A stretch of 64,000 nucleotides of DNA from NCBI RefSeq assembly GCF_002854065.1, contig NZ_CP024147.1; one strand, 5' to 3'. Numbering within the stretch: position 1 is the first letter of the stretch; every line of letters starts with the position of its first letter. Shown here in pieces: positions 24,528-52,902 of this stretch. The position numbers and the translations under genes are program-made. The stretch comes from Escherichia coli. Its GTDB lineage: Bacteria; Pseudomonadota; Gammaproteobacteria; Enterobacterales; Enterobacteriaceae. The notes beneath the pieces are model-generated. The model saw only the letters and a list, made by a program, of their open reading frames with translations. It did not search any database and was not told the origin of the DNA.

Positions 24528-24803
24528 GTGGCTTCTGTTTCTATCAGCTGTCCCTCCTGTTCAGCTACTGACGGGGTGGTGCGTAACGGCAAAAGCACTG
24601 CCGGACATCAGCGCTATCTCTGCTCTCACTGCCGTAAAACATGGCAACTGCAGTTCACTTACACCGCTTCTCAACCCGGTACGCACCAGAAAATCATTGA
24701 TATGGCCATGAATGGCGTTGGATGCCGGGCAACCGCCCGCATTATGGGCGTTGGCCTCAACACGATTTTCCGCCATTTAAAAAACTCAGGCCGCAGTCGG
24801 TAA
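24528..24803 (+). CDS. insA: IS1 InsA
   Basis: Identical to the other InsA copies. Confidence 0.95.
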
Positions 24804-25225
24804 CCTCGCGCATACAGCCGGGCAGTGACGTCATCGTCTGCGCGGAAATGGACGAACAGTGGGGATACGTCGGGGCTAAATCGCGCCAGCGCTGGCTGTT
24901 TTACGCGTATGACAGGCTCCGGAAGACGGTTGTTGCGCACGTATTCGGTGAACGCACTATGGCGACGCTGGGGCGTCTTATGAGCCTGCTGTCACCCTTT
25001 GACGTGGTGATATGGATGACGGATGGCTGGCCGCTGTATGAATCCCGCCTGAAGGGAAAGCTGCACGTAATCAGCAAGCGATATACGCAGCGAATTGAGC
25101 GGCATAACCTGAATCTGAGGCAGCACCTGGCACGGCTGGGACGGAAGTCGCTGTCGTTCTCAAAATCGGTGGAGCTGCATGACAAAGTCATCGGGCATTA
25201 TCTGAACATAAAACACTATCAATAA
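24722..25225 (+). CDS. insB: IS1 InsB reading frame
   Basis: Identical to InsB of copies 1 and 3. Confidence 0.9.
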
Positions 25226-25263
25226 GTTGGAGTCATTACCCGCCGCGAGATAAAGGAAAAATC

Positions 25264-25749
25264 ATGCTTTCCGACTGGTACGATTTATGGTTTTACACGC
25301 CGGAACTGCGACGTCCTATGCCTATTTCACGGCAACAAAGATTAATTGGGCAAATCTCTAACGGCGATGTCATTGTCACTAACTTTGAATATGCCTATGA
25401 CTCGACCCTGGTGGGGGAAGTCACGTGTGCTGAAAAGCAGTGTTACAAGCTGGCGCTGGTGCGTAAATCGGCGGATATCACCTGGCCGAAGGTTATCTAT
25501 TACGTTGAAAAAGACGGTGATAATCGCCCGTGGAAGGCAGCCTATTACTCGCAGGATGACCAGTTAATAAAAGAAGTGTTGTATCAGGATTTCCAGCCGG
25601 TGCTGGGGAAAACGCGACCCATGAAAATAACCGTTACCGATGTCCGTCACGGCAATAACTATTCAGTGATGGAGTACAGCGATGTTCGTCTGGAATCGCT
25701 GCCGGAGTTTCATTTCACCAAAGAGTATATTCAGCGAGGTGCGAAATGA
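25264..25749 (+). CDS. Hypothetical 161-aa protein with no signal peptide, probably the 3' remnant of a gene truncated by IS1 copy 2 (LolA-like fold is a guess)
   Basis: ORF begins 24 bp after the IS1 end; the frame is open back to the IS1 boundary; its stop overlaps the start of the next gene (ATGA). Confidence 0.5.
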   Translation: MLSDWYDLWFYTPELRRPMPISRQQRLIGQISNGDVIVTNFEYAYDSTLVGEVTCAEKQCYKLALVRKSADITWPKVIYYVEKDGDNRPWKAAYYSQDDQLIKEVLYQDFQPVLGKTRPMKITVTDVRHGNNYSVMEYSDVRLESLPEFHFTKEYIQRGAK

Positions 25750-27134
25750 AACGTACGCTGAAGATCTCTTCGTTGCTGTGTGTTGCGCTGCCGTTGACGG
25801 TACAGGCGGATTGCCTGTCAGGTGACGAGGTGGCACAAAACAGCGATGTGACGCTTTACGAGCAGGTGTCTTATGTCAATAAACAGGCTTCGGCCTGGCA
25901 GATTGCAGGCAAAAATCCCTACACACGTCACAACGGTTATCAGGAGGCGGGGATTGGCATCAATAGTGGTTGTTCGATAATCGACAATACGCTGGACCTT
26001 AAGCTCAATCTGTATGGAATAAACGAATATGCGCTTAAACCCGCAGGGAAATTCGAAACGGATGATAGCCGCACACGTGCGTTAATTAACCGCCTCAGTC
26101 TGGTCTATAGCGCCTCGGACAGCGTTCAATTTGAAGCAGGCAAATTTGCCGCGCCGTCAGGAATGTTCTTTTTGCGTTCGCCTTCTGATTTGCAAACGCA
26201 TTATTACACCGGCTTCCAGTCGACACGTTTGCACGATCCCAAAATGACATCGGCGTATCAGGCGTCATCGTGGGGCGCAAAAATGAACTTGGATACACGC
26301 GATTATGCGTTTTCGGCGAGCGTCATACCGAAGTTAGCCACCATCGACAAACGCTATGTGACGTCTGGCAACTGGTCTGCTAATCAGCAGGGAAACAGCG
26401 ACGAAGCCTATCTGCTGAGCTACAGCGATCATCGCTTTGGTGAGCACACACCGACAGTCAATGTGCGGCTCGGGCCATCGCCGTCACTCGCGCTGTCTGA
26501 CAGTTATCACTACACCCCGCAGCTGACGCTGAATGTCGACGCAGCCTACCACCGCTCCCAACAATGGCGGCATCTTTCCCACCATGAGACGGCGCAGGTC
26601 GAGGAATATCAGTTTCCGGATTCGCTCTATGAAACGAAAGACGAAAGCGGCGTGGAGCTGGCCCTGGGGGGGCAATACACCAGCGATAGTTTCAGCGTGT
26701 TTGGCGTTGAGTATTACTTTCAGAGCGAGGGGTATTCGCGTGCTGAACAGCGTCAGCAGCGCGAGTTAATTGATTTCCTCAACACCACAACCGGTTATGC
26801 GCCACTGGATCAGGCATTTGATTCTTACAAATACCTGATGGCTTCAGAAATCAGCAATACCGCCAATCAGGGGATGCTGCAGGGTAAGCACTATCTGAAC
26901 GCCTGGGCCAGTCTGCCGCTGGCGGGAGAGTCGACGCTGCAGCCTTCGCTGGTGGTGAATCTCGTTGATGGCAGCACGTTGCTGGGCCTGCATTATTCCA
27001 CGCCGCTCAGCACTATCAGTAACCAGCTTGAAACCTATGCCGGTGGCTATAGCGCGCTGGGAAGTCGGTACTCCGAATTTGCGCTTTTTGGCGACACGTT
27101 AGGCCTTTATTTGGGCTTTAAATACTATCTATAA
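25746..27134 (+). CDS. Putative outer-membrane protein (462 aa) with cleavable signal peptide
   Basis: MKRTLKISSLLCVALPLTVQA signal; long alternating-polarity, Y/G/S-rich sequence; C-terminal ...LGFKYYL. Confidence 0.6.
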   Translation: MKRTLKISSLLCVALPLTVQADCLSGDEVAQNSDVTLYEQVSYVNKQASAWQIAGKNPYTRHNGYQEAGIGINSGCSIIDNTLDLKLNLYGINEYALKPAGKFETDDSRTRALINRLSLVYSASDSVQFEAGKFAAPSGMFFLRSPSDLQTHYYTGFQSTRLHDPKMTSAYQASSWGAKMNLDTRDYAFSASVIPKLATIDKRYVTSGNWSANQQGNSDEAYLLSYSDHRFGEHTPTVNVRLGPSPSLALSDSYHYTPQLTLNVDAAYHRSQQWRHLSHHETAQVEEYQFPDSLYETKDESGVELALGGQYTSDSFSVFGVEYYFQSEGYSRAEQRQQRELIDFLNTTTGYAPLDQAFDSYKYLMASEISNTANQGMLQGKHYLNAWASLPLAGESTLQPSLVVNLVDGSTLLGLHYSTPLSTISNQLETYAGGYSALGSRYSEFALFGDTLGLYLGFKYYL

Positions 27135-27144
27135 GGATAAAGAG

Positions 27145-28089
27145 ATGATGAATAATGCTTCACAACCGACAGTACTGCTTTTTGCCGGTCAGGGTAATCC
27201 GGTTATTGGCATGGGCAGCGATCTTTGGGATCTCAATGCCAGTACAAAACATATCTGGGATTGTGCCAGCGATATTTCCGGGCTGAACCTGCGTCGCCTG
27301 TGTCAGAAGGGGCCGATGAATCGCCTTATTCAAACGACGGTACAACAACTGGCGGTGACCGCAATCAATGTAACGCTCTATACCCTGTGCCGTGAACGTC
27401 TTGAGAATTTAACGGTTGTGGGGTCCTGCGGACACAGCGTTGGTGAATACAGTGCGCTCTACGCTGCCGGAGCTATTTCTCTTGAGACGCTATTTGGCAT
27501 GATTCACTTCAGAGCCAGCCTGATGCATGACGAAAGCCAGAGAAATAAAGGCGCAATGCTGGCGGTTAAAGGCATCAACCGCGAACAACTGCAGACGATG
27601 ATTACGGAATCAGGCATTGCGCTGGATATTAGCTGTGATAACACGCCGCGCCAGCAGGTTATTGGAGGAACGCAGGCTGCGTTGAATGAATTTGCCACGC
27701 TGCTGATGGCCGCTGGATACGAACCGGTTAAACTCGGTGTGAGCGGTGCTTGGCACACGCGTTTGATGGAGGACGGCGTTCAGGCAATGCGCGATTATCT
27801 TGCCGGACTGGATATCGCTTCGCCAGAGCATCAGGTTCTGATGAACGTAACAGCAAAAAGCGAGGTCGCTCCGTCAATTATCAAAGAAAATCTCTCATTA
27901 CACTTAACTCATACGGTGAAATGGACTGAATCTCTCGATACATTTCTGAATATGCCAACCTCGGTAGCCTTCCTTGAAATAAGTAATAAGCCCTATTTGG
28001 GGAATATGTTAAACGATTTTGCTGGTGTGGATCAGCAACGAGTTATGCATTGTCGTAAAGCATTTAGTGATGCGAAGGTATTCAAATGA
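27145..28089 (+). CDS. FabD-like acyltransferase (malonyl-CoA:ACP transacylase family, 314 aa)
   Basis: Active-site-like GHSVGE and N-terminal [14 protein letters not shown] resemble FabD GHSLGE / PGQGSQ motifs; possibly the intact counterpart of the K-12 ymdE fragment. Confidence 0.65.
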
Positions 28090-29203: not shown

Positions 29204-29463
29204 CCCGGTGTGTGCAATATACGAAAAAAAGCCCGTACTTTCGTACGAGCTCTTCTTTAAATATGGTGGTGAGGGGGGGATTGACTCGCTTCGCTCGCCC
29301 TGCGGGCAGCCCGCTCACTGCGTTCACGGTCTGTCCAACTGGCTGTCGCCAGTTGTCGACCCCTGGACGGGGCTTCTCATCCCCCCGGTGTGTGCAATAT
29401 ACGAAAAAAAAGCCCGTACTTTCGTACGAGCTCTTCTTTAAATATGGCGGTGAGGGGGGGATT
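29204..29463. repeat. Two direct copies (29204-29282 and 29384-29463) of a ~79-bp segment covering the serX 3' end plus its terminator, separated by 101 bp of GC-rich DNA
   Basis: Copies differ only by one extra A and one C/T change; the first copy ends with a pseudo tRNA 3' end tggtggtgagggggggatt. Confidence 0.85.
29404..29431 (-). terminator. Rho-independent terminator of serX
   Basis: On the minus strand, hairpin gctcgtac / gtacgggc followed by T8, 13 nt past the tRNA 3' end. Confidence 0.7.
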
Positions 29464-34878: not shown

Positions 34879-34995
34879 CTTTTTATCCGCTTCCATCATA
34901 TCCAGAAGAATAATAGAGCCTGAAGAGATATCGTCCAGAGGGTGATGCTGCCAACTTACTGATTTAGTGTATGATGGTGTTTTTGAGGTGCTCCA

Positions 34996-35271
34996 GTGGC
35001 TTCTGTTTCTATCAGCTGTCCCTCCTGTTCAGCTACTGACGGGGTGGTGCGTAACGGCAAAAGCACTGCCGGACATCAGCGCTATCTCTGCTCTCACTGC
35101 CGTAAAACATGGCAACTGCAGTTCACTTACACCGCTTCTCAACCCGGTACGCACCAGAAAATCATTGATATGGCCATGAATGGCGTTGGATGCCGGGCAA
35201 CCGCCCGCATTATGGGCGTTGGCCTCAACACGATTTTCCGCCATTTAAAAAACTCAGGCCGCAGTCGGTAA
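34996..35271 (+). CDS. insA: IS1 InsA
   Basis: Identical to the other InsA copies. Confidence 0.95.
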
Positions 35272-35693
35272 CCTCGCGCATACAGCCGGGCAGTGACGTC
35301 ATCGTCTGCGCGGAAATGGACGAACAGTGGGGATACGTCGGGGCTAAATCGCGCCAGCGCTGGCTGTTTTACGCGTATGACAGGCTCCGGAAGACGGTTG
35401 TTGCGCACGTATTCGGTGAACGCACTATGGCGACGCTGGGGCGTCTTATGAGCCTGCTGTCACCCTTTGACGTGGTGATATGGATGACGGATGGCTGGCC
35501 GCTGTATGAATCCCGCCTGAAGGGAAAGCTGCACGTAATCAGCAAGCGATATACGCAGCGAATTGAGCGGCATAACCTGAATCTGAGGCAGCACCTGGCA
35601 CGGCTGGGACGGAAGTCGCTGTCGTTCTCAAAATCGGTGGAGCTGCATGACAAAGTCATCGGGCATTATCTGAACATAAAACACTATCAATAA
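35190..35693 (+). CDS. insB: IS1 InsB reading frame
   Basis: Identical to InsB of copies 1 and 2. Confidence 0.9.
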
Positions 35694-35853
35694 GTTGGAG
35701 TCATTACCCGTCCAGAGAACGTTGAATATTATGTAATTTTCCTGTAATTGCCAGCGATTGTTTAAGGTGCTGCAAGAGAGCTGTCGCCTGCAAAGAAGGT
35801 TTAGTGATCAACAATAATGTATGACCATGAATACTATGGACTTCATTAAACAT

Positions 35854-48319: not shown

Positions 48320-49240
48320 TTAATAGCGTGAAGGAACGCCTTCCGGGCGTGTTTTAAAGCGACGGTGTAACCACATATACTGCTCTGGTGCCATCATGAT
48401 GCATTTTTCGACAACTTTGTTCATCCACGCGGCGGTAGTTTCGGCATCATCCAGCGGCGGAGAACACTCTGGCGGCAGCATAATCAACTGATACCCTTTT
48501 CCATCTGGCTTACGGCGTGGAACGAAGGGCACCAGACATGCGCCGGACATCCGTGCCAGCATCCAGGTTCCGGTCGTGGTCGCAGCCTGCTCAACGGCAA
48601 ACAACGGGACGAAAACGCTTGAGCGCGGGCCGTAATCATGATCCGGTGCGTACCAGACCACTTCGCCTTTTTTCAGGGCTTTAATCATGCCTTTTAAATC
48701 TTTGCGGTCGAGCATCGATTTATTTGAGCGCAAACGGCCCCAGGTTTGTAGCCAGTCAATCAGTGGATTATCGTTCGGGCGGTAAACGCCAATCCCCGGT
48801 TCCTGCATACCAAACTGCCGCGCGCCCAGCTCCAGTGTCAGAAAATGGATGCCAACTAACAGGATGCCGCGTTTTTGCGCCTGCACGTCACGAATGTGTT
48901 CCATGCCGATCACTTCCGTCCAGCGGGCGATTCGGCGGTCCGGCCAGAACCACGCCATGCCGGTTTCCATCAGGCCCATGCCAACGGATTCGAAATTCTT
49001 CACCACCATTTTACGGCGTTCTTGTTCGCTCATTTCCGGGAAGCACAGTTCCAGGTTGCGATGCACAATTTTTGCGCGTCGTTTCATAAAACGTAACGCC
49101 AGTTTTCCTAATCCACAACCGAGGCGGTAGATAACCGGGTAGGGCAATTGCACGACCAACCAAAGTACGCCAATACCCAACCAGGTTAACCAATAACGCG
49201 GATGAAGCAGTGCGGTGGAGAACTTGGGTAGATTCGTCAT
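48320..49240 (-). CDS. lpxL: LpxL (HtrB) lipid A lauroyl acyltransferase (306 aa)
   Basis: Starts [24 protein letters not shown]. Confidence 0.95.
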
Positions 49241-49464
49241 ATCAATCCTGTTTTTCAACCTATACGGGCAATTGTATGTATTGTCGCATTTTTTCGTCCG
49301 CAACCAAAATTTGTGACTGAAGACTGGGCGAAATTGCCGCGCTTGTAAATAACAAATAATTTTTAATGCGCAAATGTAGCGTAAAATGTGTGGATGTTAA
49401 TTATCGATAATTGCTATATCATGCCGCGGATTTTTACTTTCCCATCTCGCAGGAACCGTACACC

Positions 49465-50517
49465 ATGCCAGTGTTACACAACCGCATTTCCAACGACGCG
49501 TTAAAAGCCAAAATGTTGGCTGAGAGCGAACCGCGAACCACCATTTCGTTTTATAAGTATTTCCACATCGCCGATCCTAAGGTGACCCGTGACGCTTTAT
49601 ATCAGCTGTTTACCGCGCTGAATGTTTTTGGGCGAGTGTATCTGGCGCATGAGGGCATTAACGCGCAAATCAGCGTACCAGCGAGCAATGTTGAAACATT
49701 TCGCGCGCAGCTCTATGCCTTCGACCCGGCTTTAGAGGGTTTACGCCTGAATATCGCGTTGGATGATGATGGGAAATCTTTCTGGGTACTGCGCATGAAG
49801 GTCCGCGATCGTATCGTTGCCGACGGTATTGACGATCCTCACTTTGATGCCAGCAATGTTGGTGAGTATCTGCAAGCGGCGGAAGTGAACGCCATGCTTG
49901 ACGATCCCGATGCACTGTTTATCGACATGCGTAACCACTATGAGTATGAAGTGGGGCACTTTGAAAACGCGCTGGAAATTCCGGCAGATACTTTCCGTGA
50001 GCAGCTGCCAAAAGCAGTCGAGATGATGCAGGCACATAAAGATAAAAAAATCGTTATGTACTGCACCGGCGGCATTCGTTGTGAAAAGGCCAGTGCCTGG
50101 ATGAAACATAACGGATTCAACAAAGTCTGGCATATCGAGGGCGGAATTATTGAATACGCCCGTAAGGCGCGCGAGCAGGGCTTGCCGGTGCGTTTTATTG
50201 GCAAAAATTTTGTTTTTGACGAGCGGATGGGCGAACGTATATCTGATGAGATTATCGCGCATTGCCACCAGTGCGGTGCGCCGTGCGACAGCCATACCAA
50301 CTGTAAAAATGATGGCTGCCACCTGCTGTTTATTCAGTGTCCAGTATGCGCGGAAAAATACAAAGGTTGTTGTAGTGAAATTTGCTGCGAAGAAAGCGCG
50401 TTACCGCCAGAAGAACAGAGACGCCGTCGGGCAGGACGTGAAAATGGCAATAAGATCTTTAATAAGTCTCGTGGACGTCTGAATACAACACTGGGCATTC
50501 CTGATCCAACAGAATAA
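49465..50517 (+). CDS. yceA: YceA / TrhO rhodanese-domain tRNA uridine(34) hydroxylase (350 aa)
   Basis: Starts [28 protein letters not shown] rhodanese active site. Confidence 0.9.
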
Positions 50518-50524
50518 ATATCAT

Positions 50525-50548
50525 TGCCGGATGCGTGCCATCCGGCAA
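50525..50548. terminator. Hairpin between convergent yceA and yceI
   Basis: ttgccggatg / catccggcaa inverted repeat. Confidence 0.6.
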
Positions 50549-50942
50549 CATTTCACTCTTACTTCTGCTGTACGCCTTCCACTGAAATAATCAGATCCAC
50601 TTCCTGAGAAGCTGGACCTAAATCTGTCTTGATATTGAAGTCCTTGAGCTTAATTTTGCCTTCGGCCTCGAAGCCTGCACGTTTACCACCCCACGGGTCG
50701 TCGCCCTGACCAATTAATTTCGCTTCCAGCGTGACGGGTTTGGTTACACCATTCAGCGTCAGATCGCCGGTAATATCCAGTTCGTCACCGTCTTTCTTCA
50801 CGCTGGTGGAGGTGAATGTTGCCTGTGGATATTTTGCGGTATTGAGGAAATCCGCACTGCGAAGATGTTTATCGCGTTCGGCGTGGTGGTGATGCTGCCA
50901 ACTTACTGATTTAGTGTATGATGGTGTTTTTGAGGTGCTCCA

Positions 50943-51218
50943 GTGGCTTCTGTTTCTATCAGCTGTCCCTCCTGTTCAGCTACTGACGGGGTGGTGCGTA
51001 ACGGCAAAAGCACTGCCGGACATCAGCGCTATCTCTGCTCTCACTGCCGTAAAACATGGCAACTGCAGTTCACTTACACCGCTTCTCAACCCGGTACGCA
51101 CCAGAAAATCATTGATATGGCCATGAATGGCGTTGGATGCCGGGCAACCGCCCGCATTATGGGCGTTGGCCTCAACACGATTTTCCGCCATTTAAAAAAC
51201 TCAGGCCGCAGTCGGTAA
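50943..51218 (+). CDS. insA: IS1 InsA
   Basis: Identical to the other InsA copies. Confidence 0.95.
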
Positions 51219-51640
51219 CCTCGCGCATACAGCCGGGCAGTGACGTCATCGTCTGCGCGGAAATGGACGAACAGTGGGGATACGTCGGGGCTAAATCGCG
51301 CCAGCGCTGGCTGTTTTACGCGTATGACAGTCTCCGGAAGACGGTTGTTGCGCACGTATTCGGTGAACGCACTATGGCGACGCTGGGGCGTCTTATGAGC
51401 CTGCTGTCACCCTTTGACGTGGTGATATGGATGACGGATGGCTGGCCGCTGTATGAATCCCGCCTGAAGGGAAAGCTGCACGTAATCAGCAAGCGATATA
51501 CGCAGCGAATTGAGCGGCATAACCTGAATCTGAGGCAGCACCTGGCACGGCTGGGACGGAAGTCGCTGTCGTTCTCAAAATCGGTGGAGCTGCATGACAA
51601 AGTCATCGGGCATTATCTGAACATAAAACACTATCAATAA
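51137..51640 (+). CDS. insB: IS1 InsB reading frame (R65S variant)
   Basis: YDSLRK here versus YDRLRK in the other copies. Confidence 0.9.
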
Positions 51641-51914
51641 GTTGGAGTCATTACCCGGCGTGGTTAGTATCGACGCTGGTGGTGTTAATTGTCACATTCA
51701 CTTTATCGGCAGCTGGATTTTTTTCATCAAAGGTAAAAGTACCGTCGAAATCTTTAAAGGTGCCATATAACCAGCTATAGCCAAGATGCTGGATGCGGAA
51801 GTTAACAAAGGCGTGCTGACCTTCTTTGTCAATTTTGTAATCGGCGGCAACCGCTGAACCGGCAGAGAACATCAGGGACGCGAAGGTTAAACCAAGCAGG
51901 CTTTTTTTCATTTT

Positions 51915-52481
51915 TTATACTCCATAGTCAGATGACGACTTTCCCAGCATGCGCTTCAGAGTGTCGTCTTTATCGATGAAATGATGCTTCAGGGCCATAA
52001 ATCCGTGCATAACGGACAGTACCACGACGCTCCACGCGAGCCAAAAATGCAGGGCACCGGCAAAGTCTGCCTGTGCGCCAGCGTCGGCAAGGGTCGCGGG
52101 GACGTCAAACCAGCCAAAAACGCTGATCGGTTTACCATCGGCAGTTGAGATCAGATAGCCGCTGATGCCGATGGCGAACAGCAATAGGTACAATGCGAGA
52201 TGTCCAGCTTTTGCGGCAAGACGAGTCATGGGCGAATAACTCGGCAGCGGACCCGGCGGTGGAGATATGACACGCCACAGAACGCGAATAACCAGCCCCA
52301 TCATTAATAAAATACCGATGCTTTTATGCAGTTCGGGTGCTTTGTGATACCAGCCATCGTAATAACTGAGCGTGACCATCCACAGACCTAAAGCAAACAT
52401 GCCGTAGACAATAATTGCGCTTAGCCAATGGAAGGCCGCAGATATAACACCATAGCGTTCAGGGGTATTTGTGAATGACAT
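51915..52481 (-). CDS. yceJ: YceJ cytochrome b561 homolog (188 aa)
   Basis: Starts MSFTNTPERYGVISAAFHWL. Confidence 0.9.
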   Translation of the reverse strand: MSFTNTPERYGVISAAFHWLSAIIVYGMFALGLWMVTLSYYDGWYHKAPELHKSIGILLMMGLVIRVLWRVISPPPGPLPSYSPMTRLAAKAGHLALYLLLFAIGISGYLISTADGKPISVFGWFDVPATLADAGAQADFAGALHFWLAWSVVVLSVMHGFMALKHHFIDKDDTLKRMLGKSSSDYGV

Positions 52482-52741
52482 AAGTGCATCCAAAACGAAT
52501 TTGCGAGAGAAAGAAAATGGCGTGTCGGAGAATGAATTGCAACACAAAAATAACAAATTGAATGATATTTATTTTTATTTCAATAATTTTGAATTAATAA
52601 TGAAAGAATCTTCATAAGTTTAGTGGGTTCAGCATCAGAGATGTCTGGTGAGTGCTGTAGAAGCAGGAATAATCTCATTCAATTTTTCACGCTAAATGAA
52701 AGGGAGATTAAATATTTGTCAGTTTATGTCAGTGCGGAAAA

Positions 52742-52855
52742 CTAAAAATAAAACACATAGATCAGATCCATAATTGCCAATAATCCCCAGAGAAAAAGAT
52801 AAAGCATCAGATGCTCGCGAATATTATTGGTGAGATAGTGCAACAGCCGACGCAT
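52742..52855 (-). CDS. yceO: YceO small protein (37 codons here; I recall 46 aa for K-12 YceO, so the length is a soft point)
   Basis: Reverse complement encodes [37 protein letters not shown]. Confidence 0.6.
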
Positions 52856-52902
52856 TAAATACTCCTGTAAAAACGGCCTCATTCTGGAGGCCGTAATGAT
52901 GA

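Follow-up and report, generated by a model that had tools for sequence, protein, structure and literature searches.

A recent IS1 insertion in yceI of Escherichia coli and a variant base shared with other IS1 alleles

The stretch of Escherichia coli DNA considered here, 64 kb in length and referred to below as the window, matches K-12 MG1655 collinearly between rutB and flgA, with 98–99% identity. A local BLAST of the 768-bp element against the 64-kb window revealed four full-length copies of IS1, of which the fourth interrupts the gene yceI and differs from the other three by a single nucleotide. The first-pass annotation of this DNA took the difference as a sign that at least two IS1 sub-lineages were active or had been acquired separately, and it raised the question of transcription of the yceJ–yceI operon. 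The locus accordingly poses two questions, namely, what the insertion does to yceI and its neighbors, and what one variant base can tell about the origin of the inserted element. The whole reading proposed here, with a probability of about 0.85, is that of a recent IS1 null insertion in yceI, the variant T of which came most likely from another IS1 allele.

Structure of the fourth IS1 copy and state of the yceI gene

IS1 copy 4 is complete and occupies positions 50888..51655 on the plus strand (768 bp); it has a G-type, or ‘IS1B-like’, backbone with T at nucleotide 444 of the element. The left terminal inverted repeat, IRL (50888..50910, plus strand), starts with GGTGATGCTGCC and matches the right end at 18 of 23 positions. 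The right terminal inverted repeat, IRR (51633..51655, minus strand), reads GGTAATGACTCC inward from the end, and on the top strand the right end is GAGTCATTACC, closing at 51655, which in the region read (50300–52200) represents the canonical IS1 terminus. A promoter-like sequence inside the left end (50895–50922) is a consensus match only.

The element contains insA (50943..51218, plus strand), encoding a protein of 91 aa with the Pfam domains Zn_ribbon_InsA and HTH_Tnp_IS1, and the insB frame (51137..51640, plus strand), encoding 167 aa from ATG with the DDE transposase domain DDE_Tnp_IS1; the accessions matched were PF03811 (3e-21), PF12759 (1.7e-30) and PF03400 (6e-78), respectively. The A6C motif AAAAAAC, a −1 frameshift site whose role in the IS1 transposase gene has been described (PMC12065110), is located at the insA–insB' junction (51194..51200, plus strand; IS1 nucleotide 307). 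A −1 shift at this motif would give an uninterrupted InsAB' protein of 232 aa with the DDE_Tnp_IS1 domain. Copy 4 is an intact and potentially autonomous IS1.

The element is flanked by the direct 9-bp repeat CGGCGTGGT, found without strand assignment on the left at 50879..50887 and on the right at 51656..51664; target-site duplications of IS1 are normally 8–9 bp long (PMC12065110). The closely related strains 100416 and CUWW06, in which the site is uninterrupted, have a single CGGCGTGGT there, which shows that the repeat arose by duplication of the target and not by chance. The duplication corresponds to nucleotides 248–256 of yceI, codons 83–86. Both the perfect 9-bp duplication around an IS1 inserted in yceI and the split of the gene near codon 83, as given in the first-pass annotation, are thus borne out.

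The length, ends, insA/insB' arrangement, A6C site, duplication and identity to reference elements of copy 4 all correspond to the IS1 family. IS1D and IS1A of K-12 have the same length of 768 bp, the same termini, insA/insB' layout and A6C site, and the same 9-bp duplication. Copy 4 shows 4 nt differences from IS1D (99.5% identity), 7 from IS1A (99.1% identity) and 75 from IS1F (90% identity), while copies 1–3 differ from IS1D by 3 nt. Unlike the K-12 forms, copy 4 joins the G-type backbone (127T, 393A, 396C) to the IS1A-type 444T and represents a rare mosaic.

The gene yceI occupies 50559–51911 on the minus strand, and its reading frame was rebuilt by removal of IS1 and one repeat. The rebuilt ORF of 576 nt encodes 191 aa with no amino acid differences from YceI of K-12 (b1056), the nine nucleotide differences from K-12 being all synonymous. 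The protein matches the Pfam family YceI (PF04264) with 2.9e-49 over residues 25–186 and the structure deposited as ‘Protein yceI’ (PDB 1Y0G) with 2e-126; relatives deposited as polyisoprenoid-binding proteins also match. It is therefore 100% identical to the periplasmic YceI-like, polyisoprenoid-binding protein of E. coli, and the orthology is supported by the collinearity of the region with b1055–b1057 of K-12, with yceJ upstream and trhO convergent. In the window itself no full-length YceI-like domain (PF04264) is encoded, the reading frame being broken after residue 85.

The 5' fragment of yceI (51656..51911, minus strand) comprises codons 1–85 and the first base of codon 86. Running into IS1, it gives a product of 86 aa, consisting of 85 native residues and a glycine and ending in NHAG followed by a stop; an identical 86-aa truncated YceI product has been called on other public contigs. 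The 3' fragment (50559..50887, minus strand) extends from codon 83 to the stop codon, contains no start before a GTG at 50801 and appears to have no promoter of its own. On these features the interrupted yceI is regarded as a pseudogene of a member of the PF04264 family and would be a clean null allele, with about 40% of the lipid-binding domain of YceI possibly remaining.

The gene yceJ (51915..52481, minus strand), encoding a protein of 188 aa of the cytochrome b561 family (Pfam Ni_hydr_CYTB, 4e-30), is located upstream of yceI and is intact, with a single conservative substitution, R91K, relative to K-12; the stretch 51656–56734, which contains yceJ, is free of differences from strain 100416. 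Because yceJ lies upstream of yceI, the insertion cannot be polar on it, and because both the coding sequence of yceJ and the DNA upstream of it are intact, the concern about transcription of the yceJ–yceI operon is largely moot. After the stop codon of yceI, in the space that separates it from the convergent trhO, there is a terminator-like hairpin (50522..50550, minus strand) with a 12-pair stem and a T-rich tail, identified by consensus match only. The only features downstream are this hairpin and the convergent trhO, and the insertion is expected to affect yceI alone. No matches to Rfam families were found in the region 49000–53500.

In many assemblies yceI is broken by other IS1 insertions, by other IS families or through a −1 frameshift at a run of seven A. 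Such recurrent breakage is consistent with the dispensability of yceI.

Insertion order and age in relation to the closest genomes

The other three IS1 copies of the window are identical to each other, and copy 4 is 99.87% identical to them. Copy 1 (17160..17927, minus strand) is inserted in pgaC with a 9-bp target-site duplication GCATAGGGG, and the corresponding site is empty in strain 100416. Copy 2 (24473..25240, plus strand) is a resident element without a target-site duplication; it lies downstream of dgcT, at the position taken by IS3D in K-12. Copy 3 (34941..35708, plus strand) is inserted in csgD with a 9-bp duplication CGTCCAGAG; this insertion is common to CUWW06 and absent from 100416. 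Sequences matching copies 1–3 at 100% were found in very many E. coli and plasmid IS1 copies. Four copies in 64 kb represent a high density, given that entire E. coli genomes have a median of 11 IS1 places.

Two complete genomes are closest to the window. Strain 100416 (E. coli, Gambia, stool) is 99.95% identical and has uninterrupted pgaC, csgD and yceI; upstream of serX its chromosome is not collinear with the window, owing to an island insertion, and the left part of the window was excluded from this comparison. Strain CUWW06 (E. coli, Thailand, wastewater) is 99.98% identical and contains at least 40 IS1 places; it carries copy 2 and the csgD insertion, has an intact yceI and shows a different IS1-associated deletion in pga. 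In both strains an element identical to copy 2 is found at the same right junction. From the presence or absence of the copies in 100416 and CUWW06, copy 2 inserted first, copy 3 next and copies 1 and 4 last.

Between 50559 and 56734, the window and 100416 show no differences in the flanks of copy 4 and the intact yceI allele. Only 6 substitutions distinguish the window from CUWW06 in about 30.7 kb, and the background divergence from the relatives is about 0.02–0.05%. Since the flanks are identical to 100416, the rebuilt YceI is that of K-12 and the sites are empty in relatives, the insertion into yceI is very recent. It can accordingly be used to mark the lineage cleanly, as a recent event that followed the csgD insertion and the resident copies.

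The exact junction between yceI and IS1 was not found in 5,426 complete E. coli genomes, the GTDB species representatives or JGI metagenome contigs. The same junction is present in the draft assembly GCA_035821435.1, with one SNP relative to the window in 10.3 kb, on a contig that ends 75 bp inside IS1; the junction is thus real, being found in more than one assembly.

In Shigella and enteroinvasive E. coli (EIEC) lineages, resident IS1 alleles expand (Hawkey et al. 2020, PMC7373316). The window resembles the pseudogene formation described there, in that a resident IS1 multiplies and pgaC, csgD and yceI are lost at a tiny nucleotide divergence; unlike in Shigella and EIEC, the nearest complete genomes, 100416 and CUWW06, are labelled E. 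coli. The high IS1 density and the lesions in csgD and pga may be called Shigella-like but are not defining, and the host is an E. coli lineage in which a resident G-type IS1 multiplies. Neither Hawkey et al. 2020 (PMC7373316) nor its supplements mention yceI, and the literature search retrieved no paper joining yceI, Shigella and IS1. As a gene loss, this is a real and recent but ordinary knock-out of yceI by IS1; by itself it carries little weight, being one more dispensable gene lost where IS1 proliferates.

The variant base at position 51331 and its origin

Alignment of the four copies confirmed the one-nucleotide difference reported earlier. The variant base T, replaced by G in copies 1–3, is located at 51331 (plus strand), which is nucleotide 444 of IS1 and the third position of InsB codon 65, AGT for serine versus AGG for arginine; it is the sole difference of copy 4 from copies 1–3. 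Residue 65 of InsB is residue 130 of the InsAB' fusion and, judging by motif positions, would lie between the presumed first and second catalytic aspartates (InsB D44 and D101).

Both states at this site are widespread. Nucleotide 444 is T (serine) in IS1A of K-12 and G (arginine) in IS1D and in the distant IS1F. The designation ‘R65S’ in the first-pass annotation thus named the residues correctly, and the ancestral G that it implies is plausible in view of the G in the distant IS1F, although IS1A natively has T. In complete E. coli genomes, the exact 61-mer of the T type was found in 3,687 of 9,172 matching records and that of the G type in 7,148 of 9,167; from these counts, well over a thousand records hold both types. 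IS1 copies with Ser65 and clean 9-bp duplications were found in other genomes (three examples). In NCBI PGAP the serine form is named ‘IS1A family’ and the arginine form ‘IS1-like element IS1B family’. The allele states, the record counts and the Ser65 copies with clean duplications indicate that the polymorphism at nucleotide 444 is old, common and compatible with transposition. The Ser/Arg change is probably neutral, both residues occurring in IS1 copies flanked by clean duplications.

The full haplotype of copy 4 (127T, 393A and 396C with 444T) is much more restricted, with a 100% match in 18 E. coli records; in one strain both a plasmid and the chromosome carry it. The 18 records include neither 100416 nor CUWW06, and the three IS1 copies of CUWW06 in the region are all of the G type. 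A comparison of the ten IS1 copies of plasmid pVTB584v-1, nine of which have no duplications, showed sites 393/396 and 444 in every one of their four combinations, that is, a failure of the four-gamete test. On this pattern IS1 alleles are recombinant mosaics, and because they are mosaics a single site is a poor lineage marker. The SNP at 51331 is a long-known IS1 polymorphism that cannot carry an inference about lineage, and the case shows that single IS1 SNPs are unusable as sub-lineage markers, since IS1 alleles recombine.

The source of the T in copy 4 was most likely a T-bearing IS1 of the same cell, acting as a mosaic donor or through gene conversion. The base corresponds to the Ser65 state native to IS1A and is one of roughly ten sites shuffled among IS1 alleles. 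By one route, the donor copy would already have had the mosaic haplotype before transposition into yceI; by the other, copy 4 would have undergone gene conversion after insertion. A reciprocal crossover with a copy elsewhere is ruled out by the perfect duplication of copy 4. Because the variant coincides with a known allele, a T-bearing IS1 should be, or have been, in the cell; within the 64-kb window no T-bearing IS1 besides copy 4 was found.

A new G-to-T point mutation, arising in copy 4 or in a G-type donor during or after transposition within a single IS1 lineage, is an unlikely alternative. It agrees with the finding that copies 1–3 and the three regional copies of CUWW06 are identical G-type elements one step from copy 4, with the absence of the copy 4 haplotype from both relatives, and with a background divergence at which a rare change in 768 bp is possible. 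The same tiny divergence time, however, leads to an expectation of less than about 0.1 substitutions in 768 bp, and the change falls on one of only eight sites distinguishing the G type from IS1A and gives precisely the IS1A base; a random substitution would hit one of the eight IS1A-diagnostic states in 8/2304 cases, or 0.35%. This figure also weighs against a sequencing, assembly or polishing artefact, in which case copy 4 would in truth be identical to the others, since a random error rarely reproduces a natural allele state. Short-read polishing does multi-map on IS copies, and the sole independent record of the junction stops short of 51331; mis-polishing from another copy would, however, itself need T-type copies in the genome, and the few substitutions against CUWW06 indicate a clean assembly. 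An artefact is therefore very improbable.

The reading closest to the earlier annotation is that a second IS1 sub-lineage, acquired separately, for example, with a plasmid, and transposing on its own, made copy 4. That two sequence types are present is plausible; that two or more sub-lineages are active or were separately acquired does not follow from one SNP. The exact haplotype does occur on both replicons of one strain, copies of the Ser65 type with clean duplications exist elsewhere, and copy 4 itself combines a perfect duplication with an open InsAB'. Against this, a single SNP in a set of four copies is not enough to define a lineage, the alleles being mosaics, no second copy of the haplotype is present in the window, and the haplotype is found neither in CUWW06 nor on any PLSDB plasmid. 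Four elements of the copy 4 type examined elsewhere are all without duplications, an observation that also speaks against this reading but is not significant, most sampled IS1 copies being without them as well. A separately acquired sub-lineage is accordingly considered improbable, somewhat more so than a new mutation, and transfer of the T from another IS1 allele in the same cell is preferred.

Use of the same target sites in other lineages

The insertion site in yceI is not unique to this lineage. In contigs of the Logan assembly of SRR10499913 (L002/L035), IS1 is located at the same base pair of yceI and in the same orientation, with one junction seen. The flanks of this insertion are 97.7% identical to the window, the differences being evenly spread and starting 8 nt from the junction, and six E. 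coli genomes with an intact yceI match them at 100%. Since the flanks match a lineage with intact yceI instead, the insertion in SRR10499913 is an independent event at the same site.

As a control, the truncated CsgD product formed by copy 3 was followed in the same way, and in Shigella sonnei an IS1 was found at the identical position of csgD, at the same base pair, in the same orientation and with the same duplication CGTCCAGAG. The S. sonnei element represents a different, IS1A-like allele with 8 differences, and the flanks are about 2% divergent, from which the two csgD insertions are independent.

Tentatively, at somewhat less than even odds, IS1 may re-use certain chromosomal targets with a precision of a base pair and of orientation. 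Such re-use suggests precise preferred targets of IS1, with selection, or chance in very large collections, as possible alternatives. If this is true and holds generally, E. coli and Shigella lineages with expanding IS would owe some of their ‘convergent gene loss’ to the choice of target by the transposase and not to selection; exact re-use of sites across lineages bears in this way on the share of ‘convergent’ IS-mediated gene loss that is due to target preference.

It is more doubtful whether the insertion in yceI itself was other than neutral, with the loss of yceI being selected or the site being a strong IS1 target, hence the recurrence. In line with this explanation are the identically oriented insertion at this junction in an unrelated lineage of E. 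coli and the many ways in which yceI is broken in public assemblies, by IS1 and other IS families or by a homopolymer frameshift. The second event is, however, known from one junction, and very large public collections make some coincidences expected. Moreover, IS1 in or adjoining yceJ–yceI was found in 6 of 5,426 complete E. coli genomes, at four other positions, a frequency close to random expectation, and at the level of the gene yceI does not appear to be unusually targeted, its frequency being roughly that expected at random. An ordinary insertion into a dispensable gene remains the preferred reading of the yceI event.

No shared target consensus was evident among the duplications compared. 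Two apparent patterns in the surveys were rejected. Partial YceI proteins of 82 aa annotated in Shigella and E. coli were considered as further insertions; their contigs end at a C/T SNP at nucleotide 249 of yceI, which represents a break in the assembly graph. The single orientation of IS1 near yceJ–yceI in complete genomes is an artefact, the search joining only pieces on the same strand.

Both window sites that could be tested, CGGCGTGGT in yceI and CGTCCAGAG in csgD, are re-used in unrelated lineages. The local GC content is 0.46–0.48, compared with a mean of 0.49 for the window.

Recurrent IS1 insertions at the yceI and csgD sites

An IS1 element in the same position and orientation in yceI as copy 4 of the window was found in the Logan assembly SRR10499913 (loci L002/L035), with a junction equivalent to window 51655/51656; a single junction of this insertion can be seen, as the contig stops within IS1. 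In their flank, these loci match six genomes that have an uninterrupted yceI at 100% identity and the window at 97.7%. Their carrier is an E. coli lineage unrelated to that of the window.

The second site is csgD, where IS1 copy 3 (window 34941-35708) is located between the copies of the 9-bp target-site duplication (TSD) CGTCCAGAG. Genome comparison showed that this csgD::IS1 insertion is also carried by the sister genome CUWW06. Genomes of Shigella sonnei (loci L046-L051) contain IS1 in csgD at the identical base pair, in the identical orientation and with the identical duplication; however, this element is another IS1 allele, with eight differences from copy 3 and T at IS1 nucleotide 444 (444T), and its csgD flanks are about 2% divergent from those of the window. 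Since both the allele and the flanks differ, the S. sonnei insertion represents an independent hit at the same site.

Mosaicism of IS1 copies at the same few polymorphic sites was found on the 122-kb plasmid NZ_CP178702.1 (loci L057-L059), which carries ten copies, one of them identical to copy 4 of the window. All four combinations of sites 393/396 with site 444 are present among these copies, and nine of the ten are without duplications. This mosaic is evidence that copies of IS1 recombine frequently with one another.

Other sequence variation in yceI

A -1 frameshift in the A7 run GAAAAAAAT of yceI (window about 51716-51722) results in 70-aa products (P0003 and P0004), ending in DEKIQLPIK or DEKIRLPIK before the stop. 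Such products are on record from 762 and 478 contigs, including those of STEC strains; accordingly, yceI may have become a pseudogene repeatedly in E. coli lineages other than that of the window or, alternatively, the A7 run may be a hotspot of homopolymer errors.

A synonymous C/T SNP (AAC/AAT, Asn83) is located at yceI nucleotide 249 (window 51663), within the duplicated 9-mer. Because of this SNP, many metagenome and Logan contigs stop at nucleotide 248, which gives rise to spurious entries for a 'partial 82-aa YceI'.

IS1 copies 1 and 2 and differences from K-12

IS1 copy 1 (window 17160-17927, TSD GCATAGGGG) interrupts pgaC near codon 18-20 and thereby disrupts the PGA polysaccharide operon. 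In CUWW06, the pga region contains instead an IS1 next to a 5.9-kb pgaC-pgaA deletion, while in strain 100416 pgaC is intact and pgaA is frameshifted.

The resident IS1 copy 2 (window 24473-25240) has no TSD, and its right junction is common to the window, 100416 and CUWW06. Directly left of it, 48 bp present in 100416 and CUWW06 are missing from the window (region 24425-24472), an IS1-adjacent deletion. To the right, genes absent from K-12, which has IS3D there, occupy window 25241-27745 and were also found in 100416 and CUWW06. The one adjoining copy 2 encodes an outer-membrane lipoprotein-sorting protein, which lacks its N-terminal part in all three genomes. The others encode a 462-aa hypothetical protein and an ACP S-malonyltransferase that is intact, whereas ymdE of K-12 is a pseudogene.

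K-12 also lacks a segment of 2.5 kb that lies between putP and efeU in the window (8062-10584) and encodes a 442-aa ORF (8209-9537, minus strand) with internally repeated motifs. Upstream of the serX tRNA region, window 29204-29463 has matches at several neighbouring positions in K-12, which are repeat units of about 80-260 bp.
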